A stretch of DNA of 64,000 nt from a virus (taxonomy: Duplodnaviria > Heunggongvirae > Uroviricota > Caudoviricetes): IMG/VR virus record IMGVR_UViG_3300013307_000015. The stretch is one strand, 5' to 3'. Positions 3,927-60,337 of the stretch are shown piece after piece. Positions within the stretch are counted from its first letter, which is position 1; each line of letters opens with the position of its first letter. The notes beneath the pieces were generated by a model, which worked only from the letters and a program-made list of their open reading frames with translations, did not search any database and was not told the DNA's origin. The translations under genes were made by a program, and so were the position numbers.

Positions 3927-3950
3927 CAGCCGGGGAGCAATCCTCGGCTG
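3927..3950 (+). terminator. hairpin terminator followed by TTTTTATGCCGTCACC box (second TTTATGCC copy 28 bp later)
   Basis: cagccgggg..cctcggctg stem then T-run. Confidence 0.5.
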
Positions 3951-4015
3951 TTTTTATGCCGTCACCGCAAACGCCGCAATTTTATGCCCTTCCCCATCCT
4001 GCATTTGGACCTGAC

Positions 4016-4474
4016 ATGAAAATCGATCCGACGAAATCTGCATTGCAAAACCTTCTGGCGTTGGTGGATGCAGCCAACCCCAATGGACCGACCAACGCTG
4101 CACAGGTGACATACACGAACCTGCAAGCTGCGACCCTTGAAGGCGATGCCGCCGCTAACACCTCGGTGGAACTCGACGGTGTAAGCAATCAAGGCTTCAC
4201 GGGTTCCCAGACCTTCTATTACGGTCGTCTTGCCTTGGCAGACGAAGCCGCCAGCCCGACAGGTTCGGTGAACATTCCCAACGGCTCCACCAGCGATCAA
4301 ATTCTGGCGCTGGTCGCCACCTACTATGGTTTCATTCCTGCTGAGATCTCTTGGCAGAGTGTGCCGGTCGCTCCGGGTACGTTGCCGGGGGACACCACCG
4401 CAACAGTACAGTGCAGTGGCTCGCTGGTGTATCTGGATGGCACCGCGACAGTCAACCTTCACTGGGAAGCATAA
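4016..4474 (+). CDS. hypothetical protein (paralog of 3352-3894)
   Basis: MKIDPTKSALQNLLALVDAAN resembles the N-terminus of the previous gene. Start taken at ATG 4016 rather than track ATG 3956. Confidence 0.5.
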   Translation: MKIDPTKSALQNLLALVDAANPNGPTNAAQVTYTNLQAATLEGDAAANTSVELDGVSNQGFTGSQTFYYGRLALADEAASPTGSVNIPNGSTSDQILALVATYYGFIPAEISWQSVPVAPGTLPGDTTATVQCSGSLVYLDGTATVNLHWEA

Positions 4475-4495
4475 GTGAGCTAAGGAAACTCAAAA

Positions 4496-4963
4496 ATGCA
4501 GATGAACCTACCATACCCCTATTTGGGTTTGAGCGCGCAGAGGTTGACTGACTGGATCAATTCTGACAACAGTACGAGTTATCAGTTGGGGGTGGACTTC
4601 ACGTTCAGTGGTCCGGCTCTTTACACTGATAGTCTGGGGCGAAACACCAAGGTAACGATGCAGCCGGTGGATTCGACGAAGTATGCTTCGACCGACATTC
4701 ACTACTGGAGACTGCCGCTGACGATTTTGAACAACTTGCCGCAAGGCAATGTCAACCCGGTTCCGATTTCTCAGTTGCCGTTTTCCATCCATGGAATTCT
4801 GGATGCGATCAACACCGCACTGGGATTGAACCTGACGCCCGACGAAGTACCGGACCAGACGTTCACCACCGAGCTTGCTTCCTATCCGCTGCACATCAAC
4901 GATGCCGTGAGTCTTGCTTGGATTGATTCGGACTTTCAATTCCAACCGCAGTTCATGTTTTAA
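4496..4963 (+). CDS. hypothetical protein
   Basis: RBS AAGGAAA 8 nt upstream; ORF-track frame. Confidence 0.5.
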   Translation: MQMNLPYPYLGLSAQRLTDWINSDNSTSYQLGVDFTFSGPALYTDSLGRNTKVTMQPVDSTKYASTDIHYWRLPLTILNNLPQGNVNPVPISQLPFSIHGILDAINTALGLNLTPDEVPDQTFTTELASYPLHINDAVSLAWIDSDFQFQPQFMF

Positions 4964-4974
4964 CGGTTGCGTGA

Positions 4975-4996
4975 GCCTAGGGGAAACCCCCTAGGC
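4975..4996 (+). terminator. hairpin gcctagggg-aaac-cccctaggc followed by TTTATGCCC box
   Basis: perfect 9-bp stem, GNRA-like loop. Confidence 0.5.
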
Positions 4997-5053
4997 TTTA
5001 TGCCCGAAAAGTGAGAATTTACGTAGAGCATCGATAATGTAGATTCTAGAATC

Positions 5054-5097
5054 TTTCAGTTACATATAACCTCATCGAGTTGGTAAGCCTATCAACT
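5054..5097 (+). promoter_or_regulatory. conserved intergenic element TTCAGTTACATATAACC + hairpin GAGTTGgtaagcctatCAACTC (copy 1 of 4)
   Basis: Repeated at 60853-60894, 29235-29280 and 43972-44008, with compensatory base changes in the stem. Confidence 0.45.
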
Positions 5098-5135
5098 CTT
5101 TCTCCATTTACATTCGAACAAACTAGGAGCTAATC

Positions 5136-5309
5136 ATGGTTGACTACGCAAACAACAACTATTCCGCAGGCAAGAAAACCTTCAAGGCAAAGGCATTGCG
5201 CTTCATTGGCGTGACGCTTATCTTCGCACTGCTGGGTGGCACGATCGTCGCGGCTGACCACGTCGGTCACTACCTGCAAACGCACCGCACCGGTTACACG
5301 GGCAACTGA
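5136..5309 (+). CDS. small membrane protein (57 aa), not in ORF track
   Basis: Strong RBS AGGAG 7 nt before ATG; ACATTCGAA leader motif; one hydrophobic helix IGVTLIFALLGGTIVAA. Confidence 0.55.
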   Translation: MVDYANNNYSAGKKTFKAKALRFIGVTLIFALLGGTIVAADHVGHYLQTHRTGYTGN

Positions 5310-5319
5310 GGAATCGGCG

Positions 5320-5700
5320 ATGGAACAACAGAAACAAGACTGGATGTCGTTTCTTGCAGACTTCGTTGATCTCGTCAAAAACTTGAACCGTAAGTTTGGC
5401 GACAACGAAATCACTGAACAAGAAATACTCGATTCAGTCGGAGAGAAGTTCGTCGATGCGCACAACTACGCGCAAGTGTCAGAGCTTCATCCGAAGATGG
5501 TTCATGCTTGGTCGCAATTGCAGGAATCGATCCAGAAGATCAAACTCATTCGCGCCAAGAAGATGACGCAGCGCCAGCGTTATCTGTACCACATGCGGGA
5601 ACTCTTCCAAGACCCCGCCAAAGTCTGGGATACCAGCATTCCGTGGTCAACGCGCTGGTGGTACAACCACTGCGTGGAGTTGCAAGTAAGGCCGCATTAA
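5320..5700 (+). CDS. hypothetical protein
   Basis: RBS GAGG before ATG 5320 (MEQQKQDW). The track ORF's upstream extension overlaps the previous small gene. Confidence 0.5.
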   Translation: MEQQKQDWMSFLADFVDLVKNLNRKFGDNEITEQEILDSVGEKFVDAHNYAQVSELHPKMVHAWSQLQESIQKIKLIRAKKMTQRQRYLYHMRELFQDPAKVWDTSIPWSTRWWYNHCVELQVRPH

Positions 5701-5732
5701 ACAGTATCCAACATTCGAATAACGAGGAATTC

Positions 5733-5942
5733 ATGAGAATCAAAGAAATGGTCGTGATCGATAACGACACGCGAGAAGTTTTCGTCGATGGCATCAAGTG
5801 GCAGCCGTCGCCGGAGTCGTACATGCATCTGGCTCGCTTCGGGACGGGTCCGTATAGCGAACGTCCCATTGAGCCGCAACGCATTCATCCCGGCATCGCC
5901 ATGTACCGTACGGTTTCCAACATGGGGGTGCGTCGTGCTTAA
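5733..5942 (+). CDS. hypothetical protein (69 aa)
   Basis: RBS ACGAGGAA; ACATTCGAA leader at 5711; start MRIKEM. Confidence 0.45.
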   Translation: MRIKEMVVIDNDTREVFVDGIKWQPSPESYMHLARFGTGPYSERPIEPQRIHPGIAMYRTVSNMGVRRA

Positions 5943-6204
5943 GATCTTCATCCTCTTCGGCCTGTTCGCATGGTACAAGAGCAGCTGGATGATCGCGCGC
6001 TACCTTACGCGCCGGGTGATGTTCAAACACGTAATTCGTGCAGACATGGCTGTTGCGTTTGCACAGATGACCGGAAGGAGAGAATTCATCGTCCAGAATC
6101 AGAGGAATCTCATTCTGCCGATCATCGCAAGTTGGTTGTTGTTCATCGCGCTCCTGTATCTGGGAGCGGCATTTACAGTCCAGTATCTTGGGCTGACGTT
6201 GTAA
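5935..6204 (+). CDS. small membrane protein (2 predicted TM helices)
   Basis: GTG start after GGGGG; LKIFILFGLFAWY and IIASWLLFIALLYLGAAF hydrophobic segments. Confidence 0.4.
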   Translation: MLKIFILFGLFAWYKSSWMIARYLTRRVMFKHVIRADMAVAFAQMTGRREFIVQNQRNLILPIIASWLLFIALLYLGAAFTVQYLGLTL

Positions 6205-6322
6205 GAAAGGCGTCGACACCTATAAGTCCTACAAGTCACACGCCTTCACGGGGCTCGACTATTCGAGACAGTCGGGCTAATCACTCTTAAAAAAAGAAGA
6301 ACTGTGAAGTTTGGGAGCTATC

Positions 6323-6637
6323 ATGCGAAGCTTATATCGCAGACACATCAAAATCTCGCTCTTGGAAGCGAGTCAAGCTGAAAGGGCCCATGGTTGGGCC
6401 AGCACGGAAGACGGAACGGGTACCGAAGTTCGCCACTACTTTGTGTGCGACCAAGAACGCTTTCTCCATCACCTGAAACAACCGGGGATTGCGTCCTTGC
6501 GCTTGCAGCTTGAAAAGCTCGGCGTCCATCCGAAAAGCATCACGATCAAGCGGGCCTACAACACGCTCACGTACAAGAACCTGTCGTATCGGCGGGAGCG
6601 CGCTGTGAATCAATACGAAATGCCGGTCGCAGCCTGA
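6323..6637 (+). CDS. hypothetical protein
   Basis: RBS GGGAG before ATG 6323. Confidence 0.45.
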   Translation: MRSLYRRHIKISLLEASQAERAHGWASTEDGTGTEVRHYFVCDQERFLHHLKQPGIASLRLQLEKLGVHPKSITIKRAYNTLTYKNLSYRRERAVNQYEMPVAA

Positions 6638-6737
6638 TCGCCGGAGGAGCCGTGGAAACGGGGGTAAGCGGTTCCTCTTCTCTGTCCCCCGGAAGTACCT
6701 TAAACATTTTTCGCTCAATCATCTTTGGAGATAACAA

Positions 6738-7670
6738 ATGAGCATCAAAGAAACCATCCTGAACGTTCTCGGCGCTAACCCCAAGAACAGCTTCAACGAA
6801 GTCGAAGTGAAGTTCTACAAGGACTGCAATCGTGACGGCCAACACGGCATGGTGATCGTCTCGCACCGCGTGAAACGTCTGGACCACGTCGCTGTCCCGT
6901 TCCTCTTCCCTGGCCTGACCGAACCGCCGGCGCTCACCGCTCGTGTCCTCGCAGACATCGAGTCGGCTGGCGCGTCGCAAGGTTATGTCGTCCACTGCCT
7001 GCTGCCCGAAACGTACGGTCCGAACCTGGCCGAGGGTGACGATCTGTCTGCCGATCACGATTCGTCGAACCGTCGGCAGATGTTCAGCGATCGCCTCGCG
7101 AATCCGGTACGCGTGCCGGCTGTTCAACGTGAACAAGGCATGATGTTCGCTGGTGTGCTGCCGAGCGATGTCGATACGTTCCTCAAGCACTACTTCGCAG
7201 CGGACGTCAAGCGACAAGCTGTGCAGCTCGCGCTGAACGGCAAGCAAGCCGCTGACCTGCGCGAGCGACTCGGCGAGCGCGTGGCGCAAGCATTCACGCG
7301 CAGCGAGAAGGTCGGCGTGATCTACATCGTCCTCGACCGCATGCTTAATCAGTTCTGCAAGGAGATCAACCTGATGGTCCTCTCGCCGAATGTAGACGAG
7401 CGGCCGAGCGGGTTGCCGTTGCCGTTGTCGAAGCTGAAGGAAGGCAGCACTCTGGAGCAGATCCAATCGGCATCGGATCTCGTCGATATGCTCTTCCCGC
7501 ACGAAGAGTACGACACGCTCACGCAGATCCAGAAGGATGAAATCCAGTCGCGTGTACTGATGTCGGTGAACAACGATACGGCTCGCAAGCTGCCGTCGTC
7601 GGTCGTACAAGCCAACGTCGAGCAGATCATCACCACGTTCCGCGAAATCAACGTCGTGTCGAAGTCGTAA
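6738..7670 (+). CDS. hypothetical protein (310 aa)
   Basis: RBS GGAGA before ATG. Preferred over the 380-aa Arg-rich antisense ORF on the - strand. Confidence 0.6.
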   Translation: MSIKETILNVLGANPKNSFNEVEVKFYKDCNRDGQHGMVIVSHRVKRLDHVAVPFLFPGLTEPPALTARVLADIESAGASQGYVVHCLLPETYGPNLAEGDDLSADHDSSNRRQMFSDRLANPVRVPAVQREQGMMFAGVLPSDVDTFLKHYFAADVKRQAVQLALNGKQAADLRERLGERVAQAFTRSEKVGVIYIVLDRMLNQFCKEINLMVLSPNVDERPSGLPLPLSKLKEGSTLEQIQSASDLVDMLFPHEEYDTLTQIQKDEIQSRVLMSVNNDTARKLPSSVVQANVEQIITTFREINVVSKS

Positions 7671-7676
7671 GGCGGC

Positions 7677-7696
7677 GAGGAGACTTCGGTCTCCTC
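7677..7696 (+). terminator. UUCG-tetraloop hairpin gaggagac-ttcg-gtctcctc
   Basis: 8-bp GC stem, then TTTCCC. Confidence 0.4.
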
Positions 7697-7736
7697 TTTC
7701 CCAACACATTCGAAGAAATTACAGAGGGAGTCAATC

Positions 7737-8030
7737 ATGTTGGAACTGTTTGGTCTTGCCGATCACAGCGTGCAAGTCGGCATCAGCAATCTCGCTCTTC
7801 AGTCGCACCACGGCACTGCTACCACCACGCAAGGTCGCTTTCCTTTCGTCGTGGATCGTCCGGGTAAGTTGAAGCGCCCGCGCACCAGCACGGTCGAGAG
7901 CATCTTCAAGCAGTTCGAGAAGCTCGGTGCACCTGCAACGGAAGTGGAAGTTTCAGTTGGCAATCGTCGGCGCGTCTATCGCATCGAGAATGGCCAACCG
8001 AAGCTGATCACGCAATCGTTTTCCGCCTAG
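7737..8030 (+). CDS. hypothetical protein
   Basis: RBS GAGGGAG; ACATTCGAA leader at 7706. Confidence 0.5.
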   Translation: MLELFGLADHSVQVGISNLALQSHHGTATTTQGRFPFVVDRPGKLKRPRTSTVESIFKQFEKLGAPATEVEVSVGNRRRVYRIENGQPKLITQSFSA

Positions 8031-8061
8031 AGTGCTGTTCCCGTAGACTGGGCGGGTTTTA

Positions 8062-8099
8062 AGAGGGTGCGTCTGTCCACGCGCACCCTCTTTTTTTTG
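8062..8099 (+). terminator. rho-independent terminator
   Basis: agagggtgcg...cgcaccctct stem followed by T8. Confidence 0.7.
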
Positions 8100-8115
8100 T
8101 CTTCGATGATAAAAC

Positions 8116-8568
8116 ATGGATAAGAAAACTGGCATCATCGTGCAATGCCTCTTCGGAGTGGAAGTCGTCAATGAGTTCCGCAAAGCGTACAAGGAGACCA
8201 AAGAAGTCCAGACATTAACGGACTCTTCCATGCGCTCGATGTTGTATCATGGGGATGCGATTCCGCACATCGAGTATGGAAATCTCTTCGTGGTGAAAGT
8301 GGGTCGTCCTGTACACATCCTCGGTATGTCGACTCGCTTTGGTCCGGTCATCATGCGCGTGACGCATCGGCGGGAAGTCGAGATCTTGATGAATCGTGCA
8401 GTGAGTCATTACTACCACAAGAAGCTGCACGAGATTGGCATGCATACGTCGAACATCTATAACGAGATGACGAAGTTCATGGGGTTGAATTCCGATAAAA
8501 GAAAATATCCTGGCGATAAACCTATGGTGAATTTGGGCCAGATGATCGAACGTGAATCGACCCATTGA
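8116..8568 (+). CDS. hypothetical protein, GDAIPHIEY family (paralog of 28767-29219)
   Basis: Shares YHGDAIPHIEYGNLF / YGDAIPHIDYMNSIGKLF motif with the second copy. Confidence 0.5.
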   Translation: MDKKTGIIVQCLFGVEVVNEFRKAYKETKEVQTLTDSSMRSMLYHGDAIPHIEYGNLFVVKVGRPVHILGMSTRFGPVIMRVTHRREVEILMNRAVSHYYHKKLHEIGMHTSNIYNEMTKFMGLNSDKRKYPGDKPMVNLGQMIERESTH

Positions 8569-8645
8569 AACGGAAATCGAACATATATCACTGACGTAGG
8601 CTAGTGTTAGCCACGACAATTTTTTCGTACTTGGAAGAAAGAAGA

Positions 8646-9296
8646 ATGGAAAAGAAAGGGGTTTTCATTTCGATGGAAGGACCGGATGGTTCGGGCAAAA
8701 CTACGAACGTGGGTTTCCTGCGCGAGTGTTTGCAAGAACACGGTTTTCAAGTCGTGACAACGCGCGAGCCTGGCGGCTCTCCGATCGCAGAACAACTGCG
8801 CCAGATCATCCTCACGCAGTACATGGAGTCGGATGCAGAATTGCTGCTCTTCGCAGCAGCGCGGGCAGACCACATCAGCAAGACGATCAAACCGGCATTG
8901 GCCGGCGGTTATGTCGTTCTCACTGATCGCTTCTGTGACTCGACCGTCGCCTATCAGGGGTATGGGCGCGGGTTGTTGGAGAAGGTACGTGAACTGGAGC
9001 AATTCGTTCACGCGGGGTTCTATCCCGATCACACGCTCTTTTTCGACATCCCTTTCGAAGAGTGCATCAGTCGGCTCTCGAAACGAGTCGACAAGCAAGA
9101 TCGCATCGACCAAGAAGCGGTCGAATTCAAGCGGCGCGTTTGGTTCGGCTACCAGCGGCAATTCAACGATAACCAACATCGCATGGTCCGGATCAATGCG
9201 TTGGAGGATCTGTCGGATGTACAGCGGCAGATCCAAAACTGGGTGCATGAGGAGTTCGCTCCGAAGCATCGTCACTTGCAACATTATCCGAGATGA
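8646..9296 (+). CDS. tmk: thymidylate kinase (dTMP kinase)
   Basis: P-loop GPDGSGKTT, TREPGG, and DRF..S..AYQG lid region. Confidence 0.9.
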   Translation: MEKKGVFISMEGPDGSGKTTNVGFLRECLQEHGFQVVTTREPGGSPIAEQLRQIILTQYMESDAELLLFAAARADHISKTIKPALAGGYVVLTDRFCDSTVAYQGYGRGLLEKVRELEQFVHAGFYPDHTLFFDIPFEECISRLSKRVDKQDRIDQEAVEFKRRVWFGYQRQFNDNQHRMVRINALEDLSDVQRQIQNWVHEEFAPKHRHLQHYPR

Positions 9297-9469
9297 TTCA
9301 CTATTTGTTTCACACCCCTGATGGCGTCATGCTTTTGATCGTCATCTGTTCTGTCGTCGGTTTCTTTATCGGCCGTACTCATCGACGTTACAAGAAGAGT
9401 CTTAAACATCGGACTCCTCATCGTAAGCTCGATGGTTTTCATCCAGCGGACAAGAAGAAAGATTTCTAA
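9293..9469 (+). CDS. small membrane protein (58 aa), not in ORF track
   Basis: ATGA overlap with tmk stop; hydrophobic LLIVICSVVGFFIG then basic tail. Confidence 0.35.
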   Translation: MIHYLFHTPDGVMLLIVICSVVGFFIGRTHRRYKKSLKHRTPHRKLDGFHPADKKKDF

Positions 9470-9886: not shown

Positions 9887-9897
9887 GGAAAAGAAAG

Positions 9898-11216: not shown

Positions 11217-11248
11217 GAGAGAGGGTGGCTTCGGCCACTCTCTTTTTA
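11217..11248 (+). terminator. UUCG-loop hairpin + T-run, followed by TTTTTATTCCC box
   Basis: gagagggtggc-ttcg-gccactctc then TTTTT. Confidence 0.5.
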
Positions 11249-11291
11249 TTCCCTCGATGCATCTAGTGTCACGTGCGCACAAAGGACAATC

Positions 11292-17862: not shown

Positions 17863-17991
17863 TCCAACAAGGGGGTTCCGAAAGGAACCCCTGATATGCT
17901 GTTAAGTGGTAGAACTTGGTATGTGTTTTTAATATGCCAAGGCATGGTTTGTAGCTGTATGTTCGAAGTGCAACCAAAGGAAAGACAAGAA

Positions 17992-18555
17992 ATGGCAAAC
18001 GACGCTAAGAAAGCCGCTCCGGCAAATAAAGAAACCGCAATGGGTTCGGCGCTGAAAGATGCACTGGCTAAGAGCGGGGGTCTGAAAACCGTACACACGA
18101 AACCGACTTCGAAGAAGAAAGAAAAGCCGTACAAACAAACCTACGAAGAAGGCACTGCACAAAGCGCAGAACAGACCAAAGCCGCATCTGCTGAACCGCA
18201 GAAGGTCAAGAAGGGTGAAGCACCGGATGCGAAGAAAGCCATCACGACGGTGGCTCGCAAGATCGCCAGGAAGGTGAGCACCAAGAAGCCCAACGCTCCG
18301 GGTGTTGCCAAACCGACCAACGCTCCGGCTCCCGAGAACAAGCCGGCTGAAAAGCCGTACTCGCCGTCGGTGGTCAAGGCGTACAAGGAGCAACTCACGC
18401 ATGAGCTGAAAGCGCTCATCCGTAAGGCTGACGATGCGGGTCTGCTCATCCACATCCCGATCGTCAATGGTCGTCCGTTCGTAAAGTTCCACGACAAGGC
18501 CACCTACAAGCCCAAACAACCAGTCAAGCAAGAACAACAGCAAAAGACGGCATAA
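17992..18555 (+). CDS. Lys/Ala/Pro-rich basic protein (histone H1-like, possible DNA-binding)
   Basis: RBS AAGGAAAG; KKAAPANKETA...KKKEKPYK low-complexity basic repeats. Confidence 0.5.
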   Translation: MANDAKKAAPANKETAMGSALKDALAKSGGLKTVHTKPTSKKKEKPYKQTYEEGTAQSAEQTKAASAEPQKVKKGEAPDAKKAITTVARKIARKVSTKKPNAPGVAKPTNAPAPENKPAEKPYSPSVVKAYKEQLTHELKALIRKADDAGLLIHIPIVNGRPFVKFHDKATYKPKQPVKQEQQQKTA

Positions 18556-18562
18556 AGTCGAC

Positions 18563-18588
18563 AGAGAGGAGTCTTCGGACTCCTCTCT
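18563..18588 (+). terminator. UUCG-loop hairpin followed by TCTATGACATCA variant box
   Basis: agagaggagtc-ttcg-gactcctctct. Confidence 0.45.
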
Positions 18589-18651
18589 ATGACATCATTT
18601 TATCAACCACCAGCATGGTTTGAGGATAAGAAGCAATTACGGAGATTCTAA

Positions 18652-22537: not shown

Positions 22538-23050
22538 GTGGAACCTTGCAGCTGCGGTTTTGTGAACTATCCGGGGGCTTGCTACTGTGGTAAGTGTGGC
22601 AGACCTTTTGTGGAAAAGCCTCAACGGTTTTACTGTCGGCAATGCGCGTGTGAGCGTAAGCAGAAGGTCTGTCAGAAGTGCGGCGGTGAGTGCTTCACGC
22701 CTACGCATGACTGGGAAGAACCGAGGTTGCCTGACATCGACAAGATTCGCGCGCTTGCCAAAGAGATCGGCTACGCTATTGGCGTTCATGGCACGCTTGA
22801 GCGAGACTTGGATGTGATTGCGGCTCCGTGGACCGAAGAAGCACTCAAGTACAACTGGCGAGAAGTGATGGACTACATCGCCAAGGGAATGAACGGTCGG
22901 GTAGTAGAGACTAGCTGGAAGCCTTTTGGCAGACGAGCGTGCACGATTCTCGTCGACGGCTGGTACAAGGACATCGACTTGTCGGTGTGCCCGATTCTTA
23001 TTCAGAAAGGAATAGAAGAAGATGAAACATCTGGTGGTGTATCACAATAG
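22538..23050 (+). CDS. zinc-ribbon protein (Cys-rich N-terminus)
   Basis: GTG start; CSCG..CYCGKCG..CRQCAC..CQKCGGEC. Confidence 0.45.
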   Translation: MEPCSCGFVNYPGACYCGKCGRPFVEKPQRFYCRQCACERKQKVCQKCGGECFTPTHDWEEPRLPDIDKIRALAKEIGYAIGVHGTLERDLDVIAAPWTEEALKYNWREVMDYIAKGMNGRVVETSWKPFGRRACTILVDGWYKDIDLSVCPILIQKGIEEDETSGGVSQ

Positions 23051-23987
23051 CTGCATGGACGGCTTCGTGTCAGCATGGATTGTTTATCATTCGCTGATTC
23101 GTCGGGGAGTTGTGGAGGACGACATCGATTTCCTCGGTTCGGATTATAACGATCCGATTCCGGACATGACGGGTAAGAACGTCTACATCGTCGACTTCTC
23201 GTGGTACGACGTCGAAGGGCTGCTTAAGGAAGTCGCGAAAGCCATCGAAGTGAAGATGCTCGACCACCACAAGGAAACGTACAAGGTCTGGAAGGATGTG
23301 GTACTTCCGGGCAACATGACGTACGTGTTCGAGTTGCCGAAGTCAGGCGTGGGAGTGGTGTGGGATTATTTCCATCCGATCATCAAGCCTGTAATGCCGC
23401 CGCTTCTGGCACACATTCAGGATCGTGATCTGTGGAAATTCAACATCCAAGGATCGCGTCAGGTGCATGCTTTCTTGAAGTCCAAAGGCTTCTTGCTGCG
23501 TGAACCGAATCGTGAGCTTTTTTTGAACAAGCTCAAAGAGTTTGGTGCGCAATACGCTTGGCTTTCTGCTGATGCGCTGAAACCGATTTACACAATCGGT
23601 GAGTCCATCATGCAGGCAGAGCTTGTGCTGATCGAGTCGATTCTGGAGCGCAACATGGCCATGGCAGAGTTCACCTGCTATGGTCTGAAAGACGACGATT
23701 CGGGCGACATGGAGCCCAAGCAACGCTACGCCATCCCGGTGGCGGAAATGCCGTATGAACTCGCCTCCGAAGCGGGTAACCTCATGGCGCACAACGCGCC
23801 CTTCTCGATCACCTACGAGACGGAATGGGCACTGGGTAAGCGCAAGTTCTCGATTCGTAGTCGTAAAGGCTACGGAGTCGATGTCGGTGAGATTGCCAGA
23901 GCCATGGGCGGTGGCGGGCATGAAAACTCGGCTGGCTGGTACGGTTCGATCTGGCTGGACTTTCCGTTCCGTATTACCCGCAAGTGA
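23022..23987 (+). CDS. DHH/DHHA1 family phosphoesterase (NrnA/RecJ-like nanoRNase)
   Basis: HNSCMDG (motif I), IVDFSW (II), LDHHKE (III), GGGGHENSAGW (DHHA1 GGGH). Confidence 0.75.
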   Translation: MKHLVVYHNSCMDGFVSAWIVYHSLIRRGVVEDDIDFLGSDYNDPIPDMTGKNVYIVDFSWYDVEGLLKEVAKAIEVKMLDHHKETYKVWKDVVLPGNMTYVFELPKSGVGVVWDYFHPIIKPVMPPLLAHIQDRDLWKFNIQGSRQVHAFLKSKGFLLREPNRELFLNKLKEFGAQYAWLSADALKPIYTIGESIMQAELVLIESILERNMAMAEFTCYGLKDDDSGDMEPKQRYAIPVAEMPYELASEAGNLMAHNAPFSITYETEWALGKRKFSIRSRKGYGVDVGEIARAMGGGGHENSAGWYGSIWLDFPFRITRK

Positions 23988-23991
23988 GCAC

Positions 23992-24023
23992 GAGGAGGCT
24001 TCGGCCTCCTCTTTATGCCGTCA
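23992..24023 (+). terminator. UUCG hairpin + TTTATGCCGTCA box (second TTTATGACC copy 27 bp later)
   Basis: gaggaggc-ttcg-gcctcctc. Confidence 0.5.
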
Positions 24024-24064
24024 AGAGCTTGGCCATTTTATGACCAATTTAACCGGGACTCACC

Positions 24065-28356: not shown

Positions 28357-28383
28357 AGCCCTCCCTTCGGGGAGGGCTTTTTA
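28357..28383 (+). terminator. UUCG hairpin + T-run, followed by TTTTTATTCCC box
   Basis: agccctcc-cttcg-gggagggct TTTTT. Confidence 0.6.
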
Positions 28384-28405
28384 TTCCCTAATAACGAGAA
28401 GCACC

Positions 28406-43463: not shown

Positions 43464-43483
43464 GCCTAGCGGTGCTAGGGGGA

Positions 43484-43514
43484 GCCGGGTGGACACCCAC
43501 CCGGCTTTATGCCC
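43484..43514 (+). terminator. hairpin gccgggtgg-acac-ccacccggc + TTTATGCCC box
   Basis: perfect 9-bp stem. Confidence 0.5.
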
Positions 43515-43572
43515 TCGATTTATCGCTTTTTACTGGGTTAGTCGATTGTGTGGAATAACTAAGGAGTGAATC

Positions 43573-43971: not shown

Positions 43972-44008
43972 TTTCAGTCACATATTACTCCTTGGATTAA
44001 CAGGAGTA
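43972..44008 (+). promoter_or_regulatory. TTTCAGTCACATATTAC + hairpin tactcct...aggagta element (copy 4)
   Basis: Same box as copies 1-3; the stem sequence differs but the hairpin is kept. Confidence 0.4.
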
Positions 44009-45127: not shown

Positions 45128-45472
45128 ATGAGTGCAGTAAGCGAAGTAAAGCCGTGGATTGAACCGTGCGTTGTCTTTCTCTGCATGGTTCACGATCTCA
45201 ACTTTCCCGATCCACGTGGTCCGGACTTCGGTCGATGGTATCTGAGTGTCGGGGAAGATCTGACCATGGAAGATGGCACAGTGGTCGGGTTCGATCGTCG
45301 TCTCGAATATGCCATGCCGATGACGCTTGAAGCGGCGAATGCTCGGCTTGAAGAAATCAAGACAAATCCCGATGCGATGTGTATTCTGACATCGACACCT
45401 CCCGATAGGGAACCTCACCCCTATCACTGGGAAATGTTGATGTACAGTCATGCAGCTACGATACAGCCGTAA
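45128..45472 (+). CDS. hypothetical protein
   Basis: RBS AAGGAGAGAG. Confidence 0.55.
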   Translation: MSAVSEVKPWIEPCVVFLCMVHDLNFPDPRGPDFGRWYLSVGEDLTMEDGTVVGFDRRLEYAMPMTLEAANARLEEIKTNPDAMCILTSTPPDREPHPYHWEMLMYSHAATIQP

Positions 45473-45500
45473 CAAACTGGTCGGAGAAGTAACGGCATAA

Positions 45501-45520
45501 GGGGAGGCTTTCGCCTCCCC
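45501..45520. terminator. bidirectional hairpin between convergent genes (the - strand reading carries the TTATGCCGTTAC box)
   Basis: ggggaggc-tttc-gcctcccc. Confidence 0.5.
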
Positions 45521-45525: not shown

Positions 45526-46272
45526 TTAGGAGATCTTGCTGATCATCCAGAAGTCTTCTGCCAGATTGGGGTTCAACACGTAGTCGAACGGAAGCGTGAA
45601 GTAGCCTTTCATACCCCAGCTTTCACCCCAGCTGTTACGAACGATGAAGTAGCGATCCTTGCGATCGTACCCTACGATCAGGACAGCGTGACCACCCTGG
45701 CATTGTTCGTTTTCAGCCGGCATCGGAACCTCACCGGTCTGTGCCACGGCATCCGACTCGAAACTGTCGTACACCATGATGCCGAACACGATCGGAAAAC
45801 CAGACGCGAGTGCATGCAGCAGATCGTCTTCCGTTTGCATCACACGACGGTATTCGACCGCACGATGATTTAGACCATCGGTGTAGGCTTCCATGGAAGG
45901 CTTGAACTTGAACTTCTTGGTGTCGTACGGCCAGAGCGTTTCATCGCACGCGCCGTACTGGACGAGTGTTTTGATGCCGTCACGGATTTGAGCACCGCCG
46001 TCTTGCCCGATGTCTCCTTCGAGCATGCGTTCGTTGTAGTACACGAACAACCGCGACAGACGAATCGGTTGTTCGCGCTGAGCGTTCTCAGCGTATTCGA
46101 GTGCTCCAACGATTGCATGGCCCGTACAGCAGCCAAGATCGCCTTGGTCTTCAACAGCAGAACAACCGGTACGCAGGTCGACACGATCGGGAATTGTGAT
46201 CGGTTCGACTGCCTTGTAAATGTGGTCTCGGGAATCGTGCTTGTCCTTGGCGTGGACATACTTGCGTTTCAT
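45526..46272 (-). CDS. papain-like cysteine peptidase (C1A family), cytoplasmic
   Basis: VEDQGDLGCCTGHA (Gln and Cys), GGHAVLIVGYD (His), YFIVRNSWGESWGMKGYF (Asn-Ser-Trp-Gly). Only - strand gene; its own RBS AAGGGTGAAAC. Confidence 0.75.
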   Translation of the reverse strand: MKRKYVHAKDKHDSRDHIYKAVEPITIPDRVDLRTGCSAVEDQGDLGCCTGHAIVGALEYAENAQREQPIRLSRLFVYYNERMLEGDIGQDGGAQIRDGIKTLVQYGACDETLWPYDTKKFKFKPSMEAYTDGLNHRAVEYRRVMQTEDDLLHALASGFPIVFGIMVYDSFESDAVAQTGEVPMPAENEQCQGGHAVLIVGYDRKDRYFIVRNSWGESWGMKGYFTLPFDYVLNPNLAEDFWMISKIS

Positions 46273-49305: not shown

Positions 49306-49312
49306 GTCTACG

Positions 49313-49340
49313 GGGGGCCTTTGGCTCCCCGCTTATGCCC
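49313..49340 (+). terminator. hairpin + CTTATGCCC box
   Basis: gggggcc-tttg-gctcccc. Confidence 0.4.
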
Positions 49341-49502
49341 TAAGGAGGACAAGAGCCCAAAAGTTGTTTTATACGTACTACAACCATATTCTGGGGTAAG
49401 TCCCCCCTAGAATCGATAGTCAAAATAAGAGACTCGCAATCGCCGTAGATTCCGGGACATGAAGAAAAGCAGTTTCCTTCAACCAGAGCGAGGTTTTTAA
49501 GA

Positions 49503-51075: not shown

Positions 51076-51104
51076 GGGGGCGATTTGCCCCCATTATGCC
51101 GTTA
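51076..51104 (+). terminator. hairpin gggggc-gattt-gccccc + ATTATGCCGTTA box
   Basis: 6-bp GC stem. Confidence 0.4.
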
Positions 51105-51849: not shown

Positions 51850-51865
51850 CCCTGTAGGAATGGAA

Positions 51866-51906
51866 AGCACGCTGGCGTCAAGCCGGTGTGCTTTTTATGC
51901 CGTCAT
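51866..51906 (+). terminator. hairpin + TTTTTATGCCGTCA box
   Basis: aagcacgc...gtgtgctt then T5. Confidence 0.45.
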
Positions 51907-54021: not shown

Positions 54022-54035
54022 GCTGGGGGTCCGTC

Positions 54036-54320: not shown

Positions 54321-54325
54321 CGTCC

Positions 54326-54345
54326 GGGGAGGCTTCGGCCTCCCC
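54326..54345 (+). terminator. UUCG hairpin ggggaggc-ttcg-gcctcccc
   Basis: followed by GATATGTCCG variant box. Confidence 0.4.
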
Positions 54346-54370
54346 GATATGTCCGCAACAGGAGAAAAGC

Positions 54371-55070: not shown

Positions 55071-55359
55071 GACCATCTACGAGATGCGTGAAGGGATGTT
55101 CTATTTCGAGTGTCCGGGTTGTAAGTACGGTCACGCCTTCTACACCAAGGATGGACCCATCTCGAATGGGGTGGAGCAGTTGTGGCAATTCAACGGCGAT
55201 CTGGATAAACCCACGATCATGCCGAGTCTGGATGTGTGTCGAGACGACCCGACACACCGCTGTCATTCGTGGATCAAGAACGGGATGATCGAATTTTTAA
55301 GTGACTCGCATCATTCTCTGCGAGGACAGACTGTCCCGATCCCCGAACTCGAAGATTAA
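55051..55359 (+). CDS. hypothetical protein, distant paralog 3 of the same family
   Basis: [33 protein letters not shown]. Confidence 0.45.
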
Positions 55360-55375
55360 CACTGGAGAAAAATCC

Positions 55376-55885
55376 ATGAGCAAGGTCCAACTCGAAACCT
55401 CCCTCGGCAATATCGTTCTCGAACTCAATGCCGAAAAGGCACCGAAGACGGTCGAGAACTTCCTCGCCTACGTGAAGTCCGGCCAATACGACGGCACGGT
55501 CTTCCATCGCGTGATCAACGGTTTCATGATCCAAGGCGGCGGCTTCGAACAAGGCATGAAGCAAAAGCCCACGAAGGAGCCGATTAGCAACGAAGCGAAC
55601 AACGGCCTGAAGAACGACGAGTACTCGATCGCGATGGCGCGCACCAACGATCCGCATTCGGCCACCGCCCAGTTCTTCATCAACGTCAACAACAACGACT
55701 TCCTGAACCACTCGACCCCGACGCCGCAAGGCTGGGGCTACGCCGTGTTCGGCAAGGTCGTCGAAGGCCAGAACGTCGTCGACCTGATCAAGCAGGTCAA
55801 GACCGGCAATCGCGGCTTCCACCAGGACGTACCGGTCGAAGACGTCGTCATCAAGACGGCCACCGTGCTGGAAGAAGCTGCGTAA
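55376..55885 (+). CDS. ppiB: peptidyl-prolyl cis-trans isomerase, cyclophilin (PpiB-like)
   Basis: [61 protein letters not shown]. Collinear with E. coli PpiB from memory. Confidence 0.9.
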
Positions 55886-55948
55886 GTCGTGCGTTGTTCT
55901 AGAGGAATTCTGTGTTGAATTCCTCTTAACCACCACAAGGAGAGCTTT

Positions 55949-56347
55949 ATGTCGGATCAACCGACTCTCGCAACACTGAAGACGACCAGTCCCGTTGGTC
56001 CGACTCATCCCGATCCGGCCAACATTCCGGCTGCGCCGACCGTCGGCGATCTGGAAGTACCGGTTCGACTGCGTTCCTTCGTGAACTCGGTCGTCGCCAA
56101 CCCGGATCAGCCGTTCACACCGGATGCGGATTTCATCCCCGTCCTTCAGCGTGCCGTGAACATGCTGGAAAAGCGCGGCTTGACTGCGCCGTGGCGTCGC
56201 AGCTATTCCGGCTCGGGCGAGAACAAGGGCTGGTCGGTCTACGCGGGCAACGATCTCATTGCCTACCTCGGCGGTGACGATACGTTCGGCCAAGCCGTTG
56301 ATGCGATGGTGCTTGCGCACAACAAAGCACTCGGTTACGTGGAGTAA
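55949..56347 (+). CDS. hypothetical protein
   Basis: RBS AAGGAGAG. Confidence 0.5.
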   Translation: MSDQPTLATLKTTSPVGPTHPDPANIPAAPTVGDLEVPVRLRSFVNSVVANPDQPFTPDADFIPVLQRAVNMLEKRGLTAPWRRSYSGSGENKGWSVYAGNDLIAYLGGDDTFGQAVDAMVLAHNKALGYVE

Positions 56348-56535
56348 TCCATGATCGTGCGTAACAACGCACTATGGCGGCGTCGTGCATCTAAGTGTCA
56401 ACCGAAGATGTACGGCGCTACCTGTCCAGTCAACTACGACTGGAAGTGCAAAACAGTTAGGGTGGTGTATTGGCGGGCTAAGCGAGACCATCGCAGACAC
56501 TGCATGATCTCACCCGGTAAGTACTGAGGAAAAAA

Positions 56536-56796
56536 ATGAGTGATGTGATCCGCTATAAAGACGTAGTCGTCAGTAAAGGCTCAGACCTTTACAAAGCGAT
56601 CGAAGACAAGAAACCTCTGGAAGCGGCTCGCATTTACTGGGAGTGTGAAGTCGAATTCCAAAAGTACTGGAAAGACACGTCTTGGGGTAAGCCTGCTGGT
56701 CTGGCAGAAGCTGAACTCAAGAAGGTGCAAGATCGCATCGAGGAAGAGCGGCTGAACGAAGAACTCCGGAAGAAAGGGGCTAGGACATTGAAATGA
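56536..56796 (+). CDS. hypothetical protein
   Basis: RBS TGAGGAAAAA. Confidence 0.5.
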   Translation: MSDVIRYKDVVVSKGSDLYKAIEDKKPLEAARIYWECEVEFQKYWKDTSWGKPAGLAEAELKKVQDRIEEERLNEELRKKGARTLK

Positions 56797-57335
56797 ATCT
56801 CGTGCTCGTTGAACACAAGTCGTCCAGCTACGGTCCGCGTACCTTCCACAACGCGAAGTCAGCCGATCTGACTCTGGCTATTGCGATGGATTTCACGACC
56901 TTCGGCGAGAAGTTGACGCATAAAGCCGCAGGGGATGATTACCTTGCGATTCCCTACGAGATGGATTCCGTCACAGCAGCACGACTTCTGTATCGGGAAC
57001 TCTTTCGTCGTAAAGCCAAGGTGTTGAATGTAGCTGGAAACGGTATCTATACATTCGCCAAGCATGGACACCAGCAGCATTCGATCAACATGCATTTGTA
57101 CTTCATCCTTGGCCTGACCAACAAACACTACCCGATCAAGAAGATCGTCTCAGGCGGTCAGACAGGGATGGACATAGCTGGAGGCATCGTCGGATGCAAG
57201 CTCGGCATACCGGTCGAAATGACGTTTCCTAAGGGCTTTCGGCAACGCGATGAGCACGGTGTGGATAGTGAACACACTGAAGCGGAAATCCGACAGCAAG
57301 TGCTCAACGGCATGAACCAGTTGGAAACTGTTTGA
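56793..57335 (+). CDS. SLOG-superfamily protein (YpsA/MoCo-carrier-like Rossmann fold)
   Basis: SGGQTGMDIAGGIVGCKLGIPVEMTFPKG matches the SGGQxGxD...GIP..G motif of MoCo-carrier/YpsA SLOG proteins. Confidence 0.5.
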   Translation: MNLVLVEHKSSSYGPRTFHNAKSADLTLAIAMDFTTFGEKLTHKAAGDDYLAIPYEMDSVTAARLLYRELFRRKAKVLNVAGNGIYTFAKHGHQQHSINMHLYFILGLTNKHYPIKKIVSGGQTGMDIAGGIVGCKLGIPVEMTFPKGFRQRDEHGVDSEHTEAEIRQQVLNGMNQLETV

Positions 57336-57463
57336 TTTCACAGGATTTTTTTAGTGCACGATGCATGTTGTGCGAGAAGACATCGAGAGATGTTTCCTGG
57401 GTAATACCACTGTACGGCTGCGGTGCAGGCGCATGGGCGAGGGGTATCCACTCCCAGACGGAG

Positions 57464-57509
57464 AGTCTGGCAGGCACAGACTTCGTTGGGTTCGAATCCC
57501 AACCTTGGC
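57464..57509 (+). other. tRNA-like 3' fragment A (anticodon-arm-like hairpin + T-arm TTGGG-TTCGAAT-CCCAA + acceptor-like CCTTGGCC); no matching 5' half
   Basis: Canonical GGTTCGAATCC T-loop. The required 5' acceptor GYYRRGG is absent within 200 nt upstream. Confidence 0.3.
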
Positions 57510-57637
57510 CTCAGCGACAGCAGAAGGATTGTGAGGAAGGCTCGACTATTGGTGAAGTCAGCAGTGCGACCCCGCGCACTGCCGGGTGGTGTATATTGGC
57601 TTATCTATCTCCGGGTAGACCCATGGCATCATCCTGT

Positions 57638-57662
57638 ACAGGTTCAAATCCTGTCCTCAACC
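57638..57662 (+). other. tRNA-like 3' fragment B (T-arm ACAGG-TTCAAAT-CCTGT + CCTCAACC)
   Basis: T-arm-like hairpin without a foldable cloverleaf upstream. Confidence 0.25.
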
Positions 57663-57956
57663 TCGATCTTATCAGACGACTTAAGCGGTGCACTTTGATC
57701 CCCGTATCCGCGCTTTCACTCCTGAACGCCTGACCCAATACGGCTGCCACGGATTGAGGTGCACCGGCCTTAAGTTGTTTGAACGAATTCCAGCGCAGTG
57801 CCTTCCAATGTTCATTCGGGGACTGCGAGCGGGTCATCCTACTGCGCTGGAATAACTGTACTTAGGTGGGCGGTTCTTCGGGGTGGTCATCCCTTTCTTC
57901 GAGCGAATCGGTTCCTCGGATGACTGCCTTCTTAAGTATTGTATGTGAGAAGTTTT

Positions 57957-58049
57957 GGAGATGTGGTTGAGTGGTTGAAAACACCGGACTGCTAATCCGG
58001 TACACCTCCTTGAGGGGTGTCGTAAGTTCGAATCTTACCATCTCCGCCA
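57957..58049 (+). tRNA. tRNA-Ser (anticodon GCT), class II with long variable arm, CCA encoded
   Basis: Acceptor GGAGATG/CATCTCC; D arm GTT-GAGTGGTTGA-AAC; anticodon arm CCGGA-CTGCTAA-TCCGG; variable stem ACACC/GGTGT; T arm GTAAG-TTCGAAT-CTTAC. Confidence 0.85.
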
Positions 58050-58146
58050 TTTTCAAGAGTAGTAAAACCTCGCCAACGGTAATGCCGGAAGCAGTACGTG
58101 TCCGGAGTGTTCAATTCACCAGCGAGGTCCAGTTTTCTGTTGTAGA

Positions 58147-58222
58147 TCCATGTTAGCTCAGTCGGTAGAGCGGCGGCCTGTTAAGCCGTAGGTCCCTGGT
58201 TCGAGCCCAGGACGTGGAGCCA
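58147..58222 (+). tRNA. tRNA-Asn (anticodon GTT), CCA encoded
   Basis: Acceptor TCCATGT/ACGTGGA (one G-U); D arm GCTC-AGTCGGTA-GAGC; anticodon arm GCGGC-CTGTTAA-GCCGT; T arm CCTGG-TTCGAGC-CCAGG. Confidence 0.85.
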
Positions 58223-58290
58223 GTTTCATGCAGTAAGTCCAGAGATCTGTAGTACCCCAGGCAGAGATGCCACTTTAGGAGAAGTAGACC

Positions 58291-58542
58291 ATGTTGTACT
58301 TGAAAGCGATGTCAGATGAAAATCTCGCGGATACCGATCCGATGAAACACTACACGCTGCACCCCATTCCGGATGATTCAGCGTTGTCGTTTGGTGCAAG
58401 TGATATCCGTGAAAACGGTGTACGCGCCAGTTGGTTCACCAACCGTGGTTTGCAAACGGTTGAACTTACCGGCAACGCCTACGTGCTGAACGCACAAGGC
58501 AAGACGATTGCCAGCCATGGCATTCCTGGAAAAGCTGTCTGA
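58291..58542 (+). CDS. hypothetical protein
   Basis: RBS TAGGAGAAG. Confidence 0.5.
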   Translation: MLYLKAMSDENLADTDPMKHYTLHPIPDDSALSFGASDIRENGVRASWFTNRGLQTVELTGNAYVLNAQGKTIASHGIPGKAV

Positions 58543-59002
58543 TGAGCCGTTCGAGTCGGCAAACTGAATCCTTAACCTAAGCCTCCTCAGCTTTGGTGGA
58601 TTTCGTTGGGTGCAAGGCCCGCGAAAGCAGAGGATCACATCCCAAGCTCTTGGAAGGACCTCGGGATGGTGAGCATGATTGCATAGGACGTAAGGGATAC
58701 AACCGCTTTGACCGGCGGTTTCTGTCCGGAGTGCATCAACTCTTTAGATCCTCGAACTAACAGCCGGATGCGCGAGCGTCAAGTTGTAACCTTCTAACCG
58801 AAAGGAGGAAGGACGCAGCCTGTAAGAACCTATCTAAGTGAAAGCAGACACTCGTGGACTGACCTCCGCGTGAGGTAACGACCGGTCAGGATCGTTATCG
58901 AAGATTTAGGTATCTTACGGGATGCGGAGTTATGAACCGACATCGCCTCCTAGCCGGGAGCGCCTGGGAGGGAATCGCTTGGTTCCCTCCCAAACAGCCT
59001 CT

Positions 59003-59088
59003 ATCTTCCCGCAGCTTCGAGTCACACCACCATTCGTGTTCGGCAAATCCGAGCGAGTTGGGGCAATGTGCCTAGGCTGCGGGAAGAT
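59003..59088 (+). other. 86-nt hairpin closed by a perfect 13-bp stem ATCTTCCCGCAGC / GCTGCGGGAAGAT inside a 640-bp ORF-free region
   Basis: exact inverted repeat read from sequence. Confidence 0.4.
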
Positions 59089-59218
59089 GTGGGTTGGCTG
59101 CCTGCGTCGATCGAAGCGTTGAGAGTACGGTGGTTCATGGGAGAGGGACGGGGAGGGAGCGGCGACTTCCTCCCCTTTCCTTTTTATGCCGAAAAGAAAC
59201 TGGAAGGAAACCAAGAAA

Positions 59219-59788
59219 ATGCGCTATTGGCTTGACACGGAGTTCAACGGTTACGAAGGTGCGCTCATTTCACTGGCACTCGTTCGTGAAGACAACGAGT
59301 ATCTGTACGTGATTCTGCCCAGACCGGCGAATATTACGGACTGGGTGAAAGAGAACGTGATGCCGATTCTCGAAGCAGTTCCGCAACGCGTGAAGCCGAA
59401 AAAGCTCATGCATTCGCAGCTGGGTCAAGCAATCGAGACCTTCATGAAGGGCGACGAGGATCCCGTCATCATCACGGACTGGCCGGACGACATCACGTAC
59501 TTCTGCGAGAATATTCTGACAGGTCCGGGTACGATGATCAATATCCCGCGTCTGTCGTTCCGCATGCATCGGGTGGACGCGTATCCGAACACGATCTTTG
59601 ATCGAGAGTCGGGCATGGCAGCTGTGCAGCACAATGCTTATTGGGATGCGCTGTCATTGATGGTCAAGTGCATCGACGAGAACCTCGAACAAGGTCCAGA
59701 AGTCTGCCCGATTTGTGGACTGAATGGTAAGCATCCGCACAAAAGACTCAAGGAAGCTTTTCTAGGAGACTCGAAGAAGAGTAAGTAA
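59219..59788 (+). CDS. DEDDh 3'-5' exonuclease (oligoribonuclease/DnaQ-like)
   Basis: RYWLDTEFNGY (Exo I D-x-E), ITDWPDD (Exo II), VQHNAYWDALS (Exo III H-x-A-x-x-D). 189 aa, Orn-sized. Confidence 0.65.
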   Translation: MRYWLDTEFNGYEGALISLALVREDNEYLYVILPRPANITDWVKENVMPILEAVPQRVKPKKLMHSQLGQAIETFMKGDEDPVIITDWPDDITYFCENILTGPGTMINIPRLSFRMHRVDAYPNTIFDRESGMAAVQHNAYWDALSLMVKCIDENLEQGPEVCPICGLNGKHPHKRLKEAFLGDSKKSK

Positions 59789-60307
59789 TTACTCCAGCAC
59801 CCCTATTATATGCGAGAGTAGCCCCGCCTTTCGCGATCACGGTTTGTCTGTCACCTCCTTTCTGGTAGATCGACTCTGATTGCACCTCCATCTTTAGGCC
59901 GGGCCTTAGGCTTTCGCAAGCCGGAGTCGTTGTCCGGACGCGCTAACTTTCCGTGTAGGCGCGAAGCCTGGTTTCCGACATTACCTGCGATAGCGCGTAG
60001 GCGTCGGATAAACGGACCGGGTAGAGCTACGCTAGGCTCTATCAAGTTGTACTGCCGGTACGCGGCCTGACGCTTTACGCGTCGCTGGGCCATTGCGGGC
60101 ATTCCTTGTTTCAGAAGGTTTGTACCCGCGCGCTGGTGCCGTGAATGTGCAGCCTACAATGCTTCTTTGCCCAAGTGCGCATAGGACAATGATGCATTGT
60201 GGGAAGTACATTCGAAACGCAAGACCGCAGTCGATTTCTGACGACTCCACTCGCTACGTGAAATTGACAAATCGGACTCGGTTTTGCTTTCTGTGCTTCG
60301 GTGTAGG

Positions 60308-60337
60308 GGGAGGCTTCGGCCTCCCTTCTATGCCATC
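60308..60337 (+). terminator. UUCG hairpin gggaggc-ttcg-gcctccc + TTCTATGCCATCA box
   Basis: read from sequence. Confidence 0.45.

Follow-up and report, generated by a model that had tools for sequence, protein, structure and literature searches.

We have analysed a recurrent sequence box in a 64,000-nucleotide stretch of DNA (hereafter the window) from an uncultivated tailed phage, IMG/VR record IMGVR_UViG_3300013307_000015. The box stands directly behind GC-rich hairpins and is very probably the conserved 3' tail of the intrinsic terminator of phiKZ-like jumbo phages, a module made of a GC stem-loop followed by (T)TTAT-G/T-Y-Y-G-T. In the best-supported reading, it belongs to the terminator and is not a separate promoter, activator or processing site. 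The initial annotation had guessed at a phage-specific transcription signal linked to terminators, which agrees with this assignment, and had suggested that the box may be a promoter, activator site or processing signal in its own right, which does not. A recurrent motif of an uncultivated 245 kb soil phage is thereby assigned to an already described signal class, and the phage itself is placed in the phiKZ-like lineage. The assignment is built on the anatomy of the sites, their enrichment over chance, their consistency with gene direction, the identity of the tail with the phiKZ consensus and the presence of the module in five further phages. The TTATG-YY-GT tail, including the bases past the RNA 3' end, is kept from a Pseudomonas phage of 37% GC to soil, Ralstonia and Xanthomonas phages of 53-54% GC, and its conservation while the stems vary freely argues for direct reading of the tail by phage RNA polymerases (RNAPs). 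Two points may interest a specialist: the part of the tail that is not transcribed is conserved throughout the family, and it overlaps with the late-promoter word TATG.

In phiKZ, 133 termination sites were mapped by ONT-cappable-seq, and the consensus drawn from the 3' ends is a stem-loop followed by TTAT, 5'-BCCYCCCCHWWDGGGRRGGBYTTATKYYGT-3' (Putzeys et al. 2024, PMC10914365). A closely similar motif, motif A of phage 201phi2-1, is present in 59 terminators of that phage (PMC11512511). The tail consensus of the window, tcTTTATGCCgTcA, fits the YTTATKYYGT end of the phiKZ consensus; TTTATGCCGT agrees at 10 of 10 positions, and the TTTATTCCC variants fit with T at the K position. As far as sequence can tell, every checkable feature of a phiKZ-type terminator is found here, the restriction of the module to the family being judged from one control genome.

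The tie between box and hairpin that the initial annotation had noticed is well beyond chance. Within the window, 12 of 151 strong hairpins carry TTAT[GT][CT][CT] directly 3', against 0.7 expected (hairpin finder and tail pattern were simple purpose-written scripts), and the count reaches ~18 with looser variants, the ~6 sites beyond the 12 strict ones having degenerate tails. At least 12 copies of the box had been claimed, a figure that holds for approximate matches and not for the exact word. The exact 12-mer TTTATGCCGTCA occurs only three times (3953, 24012 and 51894), and tolerance of up to two mismatches gives 12 matches against 4.9 expected, a number reached in 0 of 100 shuffles. Ten of these 12 adjoin a hairpin; the other two, at 45971 and 62513, lie within genes without a hairpin and are probably chance matches. 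The conserved core is (T)TTATGCC(G/C)(T) right after the GC hairpin, with variable positions beyond it, and TATGCC is the second most intergenic-enriched 6-mer of the window, with 16 of its 22 copies in non-coding DNA, which makes up 17% of the sequence (p=1e-8).

Boxes are found on the plus strand at 3953, 4997, 24012, 34559, 43506, 49332, 51093, 51894, 59183, 60327 and 60930, and on the minus strand at 18556, 34515 and 45501. Tails in which T replaces G, or which differ in other ways, are TTTTATTCCC at 11243 and 28379, TATTCTCCC at 38657 and ATATGTCC at 54347. TATG is present in 13 box-type tails and in two second copies, and absent from the T-variants. At all listed sites the stems are 6-17 bp long, with energies of -12 to -26 kcal/mol, and the hairpin sequence is different at each site. 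The description of most hairpins as having a cTTCGg loop did not hold, as UUCG loops close 12 of ~27 intergenic hairpins (44%) and only 2-3 of 13 TATGCC-type boxes stand behind one, the others following GCAA, AAAC, ACAC, TTT, ATT and other loops.

The module recurs well outside the window. We counted strong hairpins followed by TTAT[GT][CT][CT] across genomes, including the window phage itself, whose sequence was extended beyond the window and now covers 97 kb of ~245 kb (coordinates marked ext refer to this extension). The window phage has 17 such tails among 225 hairpins (0.9 expected), and the cultured phiKZ-like phages show an 8- to 30-fold enrichment: phiKZ, 28/105 in 95 kb (1.5 expected); Ralstonia RP31, 19/110 (0.6); Erwinia Deimos-Minion, 10/67 (0.5); Klebsiella Eowyn, 10/75 (1.3); and Xanthomonas LucasX, 13/115 (0.5). 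In XbC2, a jumbo phage that is not phiKZ-like and the sole control genome, hairpin plus tail is not enriched (2/40 against 0.6 expected, none of them TTATG). The module is thus kept in six phages including this one, the five cultured ones each belonging to a different genus or being unassigned. The K position, which the search pattern left open, is G in 14/17 tails here, 22/28 in phiKZ and 17/19 in RP31, in 70/80 over the five cultured phages and in 84/97 overall, and the G and T that follow YY also recur. Exact TTTATGCCGTCA is present in Klebsiella Eowyn as well, and a hairpin with tail lies directly 3' of the major head gene in phiKZ and in the window phage alike.

The candidate terminators with a full tail are spread over the plus strand of the window. 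The first, at 3922-3964, joins a hairpin at 3922-3955 (GCAA loop, -23 kcal/mol) to the tail TTTATGCCGTCA at 3953-3964, and it is followed at 4973-5008 by a hairpin (4973-4998, AAAC loop) with tail TTTATGCCCGAA. The site at 23992-24023 has a UUCG hairpin (23992-24011) and tail TTTATGCCGTCA, which recurs behind a 17-bp hairpin at 51860-51905. Further sites combine an ACAC loop with TTTATGCCCTCG (43481-43517), a UUU loop with CTTATGCCCTAA (49311-49343), an AUU loop with ATTATGCCGTTA (51076-51104) and a UUCG loop with TCTATGCCATCA (60306-60338). At 59150-59194, a T-rich spacer separates the hairpin (59150-59175) from the tail TTTATGCCGAAA, and at 60898-60940 a 16-bp hairpin with a GCAA loop precedes the tail ATATGCCCTAA, behind which stands a ACATTCGAAG motif. 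T-variant tails follow UUCG hairpins at two plus-strand sites, TTTTTATTCCC at 11217-11253 and TTTTATTCCC at 28357-28388, and degenerate tails follow UUCG hairpins at two more, TATTCTCCC at 38637-38665 and ATATGTCCGCAA at 54325-54358.

The remaining sites are read on the minus strand or on both. At 18545-18590, the hairpin 18561-18590 is followed on the minus strand by the tail TTTATGCCGTCT (18556 to 18545), which overlaps the stop codon of the plus-strand gene 17896-18555 and has no minus-strand gene downstream. The two-sided site at 34504-34570 has an extended hairpin between GGCATAAAG, which gives the minus-strand tail TTTATGCCGGAC, and the plus-strand CTTATGCCGTAA; its minus-strand tail overlaps the stop codon of 33894-34514. 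We regard 18556(-) and 34515(-) as the second faces of two-sided sites. The site at 45490-45520 (minus strand; hairpin 45520 to 45501, GAAA loop, tail CTTATGCCGTTA) would terminate the minus-strand gene 45526-46272 and converges on the plus-strand open reading frame (ORF) 45128-45472. Conservation of the tail through pairing with an upstream CATAA arm was considered and rejected, because such pairing holds at only ~3 sites (18556, 34515 and one beyond the window).

In their orientation, the tails follow the genes that end in front of them: plus-strand tails come after plus-strand genes, at gene 3' ends or in intergenic DNA, and minus-strand tails occur at 45501, after the gene 45526-46272, and in a minus-strand gene cluster beyond the window. 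The papain-like product of 45526-46272 (Peptidase_C1 / C39_2) is encoded by the sole minus-strand gene of the window, which ends in a minus-strand terminator of its own and has the look of a cassette acquired independently; the region beside it varies among strains, with a 114-aa gene in some and a 95-aa gene in others.

Standard searches see little of this. A sigma-70 promoter scan and a canonical terminator scan gave counts at chance level and overlooked most box-type sites. The earlier statement that the box is no sigma-70 pair was right. In the scanned first 20 kb, the sites at 3922, 4973, 11217 and 18563 do not have the five or more T in 8 nt of a canonical terminator and went unreported, and plain T-run sites such as 8061 were the only kind reported. 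Rfam returned two tRNAs and no family covering the hairpin and tail modules.

The alternative that deserves most attention is that the box itself is a late promoter of the phage's non-virion RNA polymerase (nvRNAP), with TATG supplying a G at +1 behind each terminator so that every unit re-initiates. TATG is necessary for initiation by the phiKZ nvRNAP, with G as +1 (PMC4666361), and is read by a pocket in its subunit GP123 (PMC12809450). A GP123 homologue encoded by the window phage keeps most of the stacking residues, the tail prefers G over T as described above, its G lies 23-35 nt ahead of many start codons, and in phiKZ two starts (P049 and P075) fall on a TATG just 5-8 nt past a tail. 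We nevertheless consider this promoter role unlikely. Among the phiKZ start sites compared, rows P001-P004 and P008-P126 of 149 (bioRxiv supplement), none begins at a hairpin-adjacent tail G. The late starts that do lie near terminators (P049, P054, P075, P078 and P107) have a TATG of their own, 5-40 nt beyond the tail, early promoters lie 35-40 nt past the tails (P001, P017, P028 and P099), and RNA 3' ends fall within TTAT (T001). Moreover, TTATT variants occupy the same position in the window despite the essential G at +1.

The genes around the boxes argue in the same direction. At 18556(-), 34515(-) and 45501(-), a promoter would have no gene to drive: minus-strand ORFs at these three copies have coding scores that are negative or far below those of the overlapping plus-strand genes, and a candidate minus-strand gene downstream of 45501(-) was rejected for its negative score. 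The reported position upstream of a gene start, at a spacing of 30-90 bp, is right: most copies lie ~24-90 bp away, 4997 lies 139 bp away and 49332 lies 171 bp away. The same spacing is found for the box-less terminators at 7677, 8061, 20365, 31955, 33798 and 43933, so that in a tightly packed, co-directional genome the distance is uninformative on promoter function. Some boxes do precede virion genes (starts at 3956/4016, 24065 and 11292), and many others precede small genes of unknown function; the major head operon, an archetypal late unit, has no hairpin and box upstream.

A promoter role survives for two copies without a strong hairpin. Second copies had been noted behind the first box at two loci with a spacing of 27-28 bp; both exist, and the spacing is 28 bp at one (3953 to 3981) and 25 bp at the other (24012 to 24037). 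The copy at 3981-3992 (plus strand, TTTATGCCCTTC, no hairpin) places its TATG G 30 nt ahead of ATG 4016, the start of a virion-protein paralogue, and the copy at 24037-24048 (plus strand, TTTATGACCAAT) places it 23 nt ahead of ATG 24065, the start of a 964-aa tail/virion protein. Lying 25-28 bp past a tail and 23-30 nt ahead of virion-gene start codons, they resemble the layout of phiKZ P054 and P107, which start ~17-22 nt past a terminator tail. Given this layout, the likeliest reading of both copies is as candidate late promoters for the nvRNAP, with the G of TATG as +1.

Several points weigh against the terminator reading. We infer termination at these sites in the window phage by homology. 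The tail does hold TATG, which forms the essential core of late promoters in phiKZ, and strongly favours the G; this word may have a dual role as terminator and promoter, a second way in which the earlier promoter idea could survive. The start-site resolution of ONT-cappable-seq is only ~2 nt, and the phiKZ start table was covered in part. The consulted literature offers no explanation for a GYYGT that is conserved and untranscribed. A single RNAP subunit homologue was found in the 97 of ~245 kb covered, with no search aimed at further RNAP subunits, chimallin or PhuZ. Strain variation adds no power to test selection on the tail, since among 19 variant loci (86-99.5% identity) nearly all hairpin and tail modules are identical. 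In favour of the terminator, the strain variants L007, L008 and L009 show at 11217-11246 a compensatory G-C to A-T pair, which preserves the stem, and two G·U to A-U changes, with the TTTTTATTCCC tail unchanged.

For a terminator of this kind, we propose that the hairpin would form in the nascent RNA, that the short U-tract (UUUAU) would weaken the RNA-DNA hybrid, and that the transcript would be released with its 3' end inside TTAT. The G-Y-Y-G-T beyond should act at the level of DNA or polymerase, for example as a pause or positioning signal that offsets the short U-tract. Since it comes after the 3' end of the transcript and is kept by six phages of different genera and with unrelated stems, it should be read on the DNA by the polymerase. 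A more specific version, which we put forward tentatively and give only a low probability, is that the GP123 pocket re-recognises the non-template TAT|G during elongation as the hairpin forms, so that the promoter word of the polymerase is reused. Re-recognition would make the enzyme pause at a point where the RNA ends in U and G comes next, a pause-like pyrimidine(-1)/G(+1) configuration, and would allow release with only UUAU. If this is true, the same 4-nt word would mean start on free DNA and stop behind a hairpin, which would explain both the conservation of the untranscribed G, YY, G and T in six phages of different genera with 28-44% protein identity and the fact that TATG by itself is not enough to mark a promoter.

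Cleavage of the RNase E type generally takes place in AU-rich single strands beside a stable tetraloop hairpin, and the box could accordingly be an RNA processing site, with an endonuclease cutting in the AU-rich UUUAU and leaving 3' ends protected by the stem-loop. We give this very little credence. In phiKZ, 3' ends that map to these motifs are taken to be termination sites, and 201phi2-1 terminators, chosen partly by these motifs, work in vivo in a terminator-trap assay (PMC11512511). The motif is also kept in phages of Pseudomonas, Klebsiella, Xanthomonas and Ralstonia, a range of hosts that suggests a machinery supplied by the phage and not nucleases of the host, and the conserved GYYGT is unusually long for an RNase E requirement.

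A conserved word of 9-12 nt in intergenic DNA might instead be bound by a DNA-binding regulator of the phage, either an activator or an antiterminator, or be an intergenic repeat that is mobile or was duplicated, and antitermination was suspected by the authors of the 201phi2-1 study (PMC11512511). Both forms of this idea are very improbable. The hairpins differ at every site, which a copied repeat would not allow; the word is strictly locked in strand and position to the 3' foot of the hairpin and has no palindromic or dimer-site architecture; and six phages whose proteins share little identity (28-44%) have retained it, as would be expected of a core-polymerase signal more than of an accessory regulator.

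The genome around the window supports the family assignment. The window represents one strain of a ~245 kb phage that was assembled independently from several rhizosphere metagenomes (contigs of 244,888, 244,894 and 244,636 bp). When 12 kb were compared by megablast with 50,697 phage records, neither a near-identical phage nor a close cultured relative turned up. An SNF2 helicase encoded just past the window shares 38-44% identity across 90% of its length with helicases of phiKZ-like phages, the prohead protease matches Peptidase_S80, and the gene for a phiKZ-type major head protein (740 aa, phrog_3231) lies ~13 kb beyond the window end. The extended sequence also encodes a 'polymerase' (phrog_2943) and a divergent DnaB on the minus strand. 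The S80 protease, SNF2 helicase and GP123 homologue follow in syntenic order just outside the window, and DnaB(-), a gp119-like gene, the major head protein, a gp122-like gene and a gp123-like gene stand in phiKZ order. The last encodes a 523-aa protein homologous to GP123, the beta-like subunit of the phiKZ nvRNAP (28% identity, E=4e-83). Fourteen residues are reported as forming the TATG pocket of GP123 (PMC12809450). Eight of them are kept or conservatively replaced here (F151, S144, H331, S334, Q466; Y399F, Y406F, K158R), three are changed (S330A, N398T, S402V) and the other three are ambiguous in the pairwise alignment. Judged by its sequence, the window phage is an uncultivated phiKZ-like (nucleus-forming) jumbo phage of soil and rhizosphere, and it presumably transcribes its own genome with its own multisubunit RNA polymerases.

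Some neighbouring genes deserve mention. A 206-aa protein (33894-34514) matches Pfam PhiKZ_MCP and may be a head-protein fragment or paralogue. Paralogous virion proteins of 122-582 aa, with DUF7941 and/or Laminin_G_3, form a long array at 177-4963 and ~10 kb upstream (L008 1-13024). A protein of 143-153 aa that matches Pfam RNA_pol_A_CTD, the alpha-subunit C-terminal domain, is encoded ~1.3 kb past the window end (L003 12488-12949); it is an odd gene for a phage thought independent of host RNAP, and upstream of it stand a hairpin, TTTATGCC and ACATTCGAAG.

Two other intergenic motifs were noted. The AT-rich TTTCAGTCACATATAAC occurs on the plus strand at 5054-5070, 29235-29251, 43972-43988 and 60852-60868 (4 matches with up to three mismatches against 0.09 expected) and again at ext 67135, ~3.1 kb past the window end. 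It resembles the early, virion-RNAP promoter of phiKZ (…AACAGTATATTAC), and its distance from a preceding terminator tail is often a few tens of nt, a spacing also seen in phiKZ; on this likeness, the TTTCAGTCACATATAAC sites are probably early promoters of the window phage. The second motif, (T)TTACATTCGAAG, is found on the plus strand at 5108, 5709, 7704, 14603, 44423, 60942, 62383 and 63611 and beyond the window at ext 65337, 67182 and 80698. It lies 10-25 nt ahead of start codons, overlapping the ribosome-binding site; it precedes the GP123 homologue and the alpha-CTD-like gene, and ACATTCGA is intergenic in 10 of 10 cases. It is possibly a middle-promoter or start-site element, or a signal of the 5' untranslated region.

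Among RNAs, tRNA-Ser (57957-58049) and tRNA-Asn (58147-58222) lie in a ~3 kb, mostly non-coding stretch (57336-60359). Its parts at 57336-57950, 58543-59150 and 59789-60300 are GC-rich, appear structured, have no Rfam match and may be novel phage RNAs. A 100-nt tRNA-Arg(CCG) called by ARAGORN at 23731-23830, within the coding sequence of a DHH phosphoesterase (23022-23987), is unconfirmed by Rfam and probably a false positive.

In practice, the module may serve as a cheap marker of the boundaries and strand of transcription units in chimallivirus contigs from metagenomes, and it can expose start codons wrongly called at an ATG inside the box. The ATG within the tail (TTTATGCC) was taken as a gene start at 3956 and 59186 by the longest-ORF rule and in the JGI calls, and the ENA calls start instead at 4016 and 59219, both with ribosome-binding sites; an ATG in a terminator tail can thus give rise to spurious start codons.

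Compared with known systems, the sites come closest to the phiKZ terminator, with which they share the GC stem-loop, the order (T)TTAT, G/T, Y, Y, G, T, the placement at gene 3' ends on the transcribed strand, a few two-sided copies with CATAA upstream and one copy directly after the major head gene. They differ in their stems, which are near-fixed in phiKZ (GCCCTCCC…GGGAGGGC) and all different in the window phage, with variable loops (UUCG, GNRA and tri-loops). The YY pair is nearly always CC in the window phage, in line with its GC content of 53%, whereas it mostly contains T in phiKZ (37% GC). With the canonical Rho-independent terminator, the module shares the intergenic position, the GC-rich hairpin with its stable tetraloops and the T-rich stretch behind it; in contrast to that terminator, the U-tract is only 3-5 nt long and interrupted by A, and conserved non-U sequence follows. 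Among promoters, the phiKZ late promoter shares TATG with its strongly preferred G, and a GP123 homologue is encoded nearby; however, phiKZ late promoters have no conservation beyond TATG and no upstream hairpin, whereas the box has an extra T-run, CC, G and T and admits T for a G that is essential there. An N4-like hairpin promoter was rejected, the stems and loops being heterogeneous RNA-type tetraloops without conserved loop or stem bases. A T4-type late promoter (TATAAATA) and a Rak2-like affiliation, prompted by the first tail-protein matches, were dropped because the helicase, major head protein, GP123 homologue and synteny point to phiKZ-like phages. Finally, sequence-specific pause and termination signals are known from other polymerases, such as the consensus elemental pause of bacterial RNAP (G-10 Y-1 G+1) and the class II signals of T7 RNAP. 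An RNA ending at the U of UUAU would have G as the next templated base and the stem-foot G near -10, a resemblance of pattern only.

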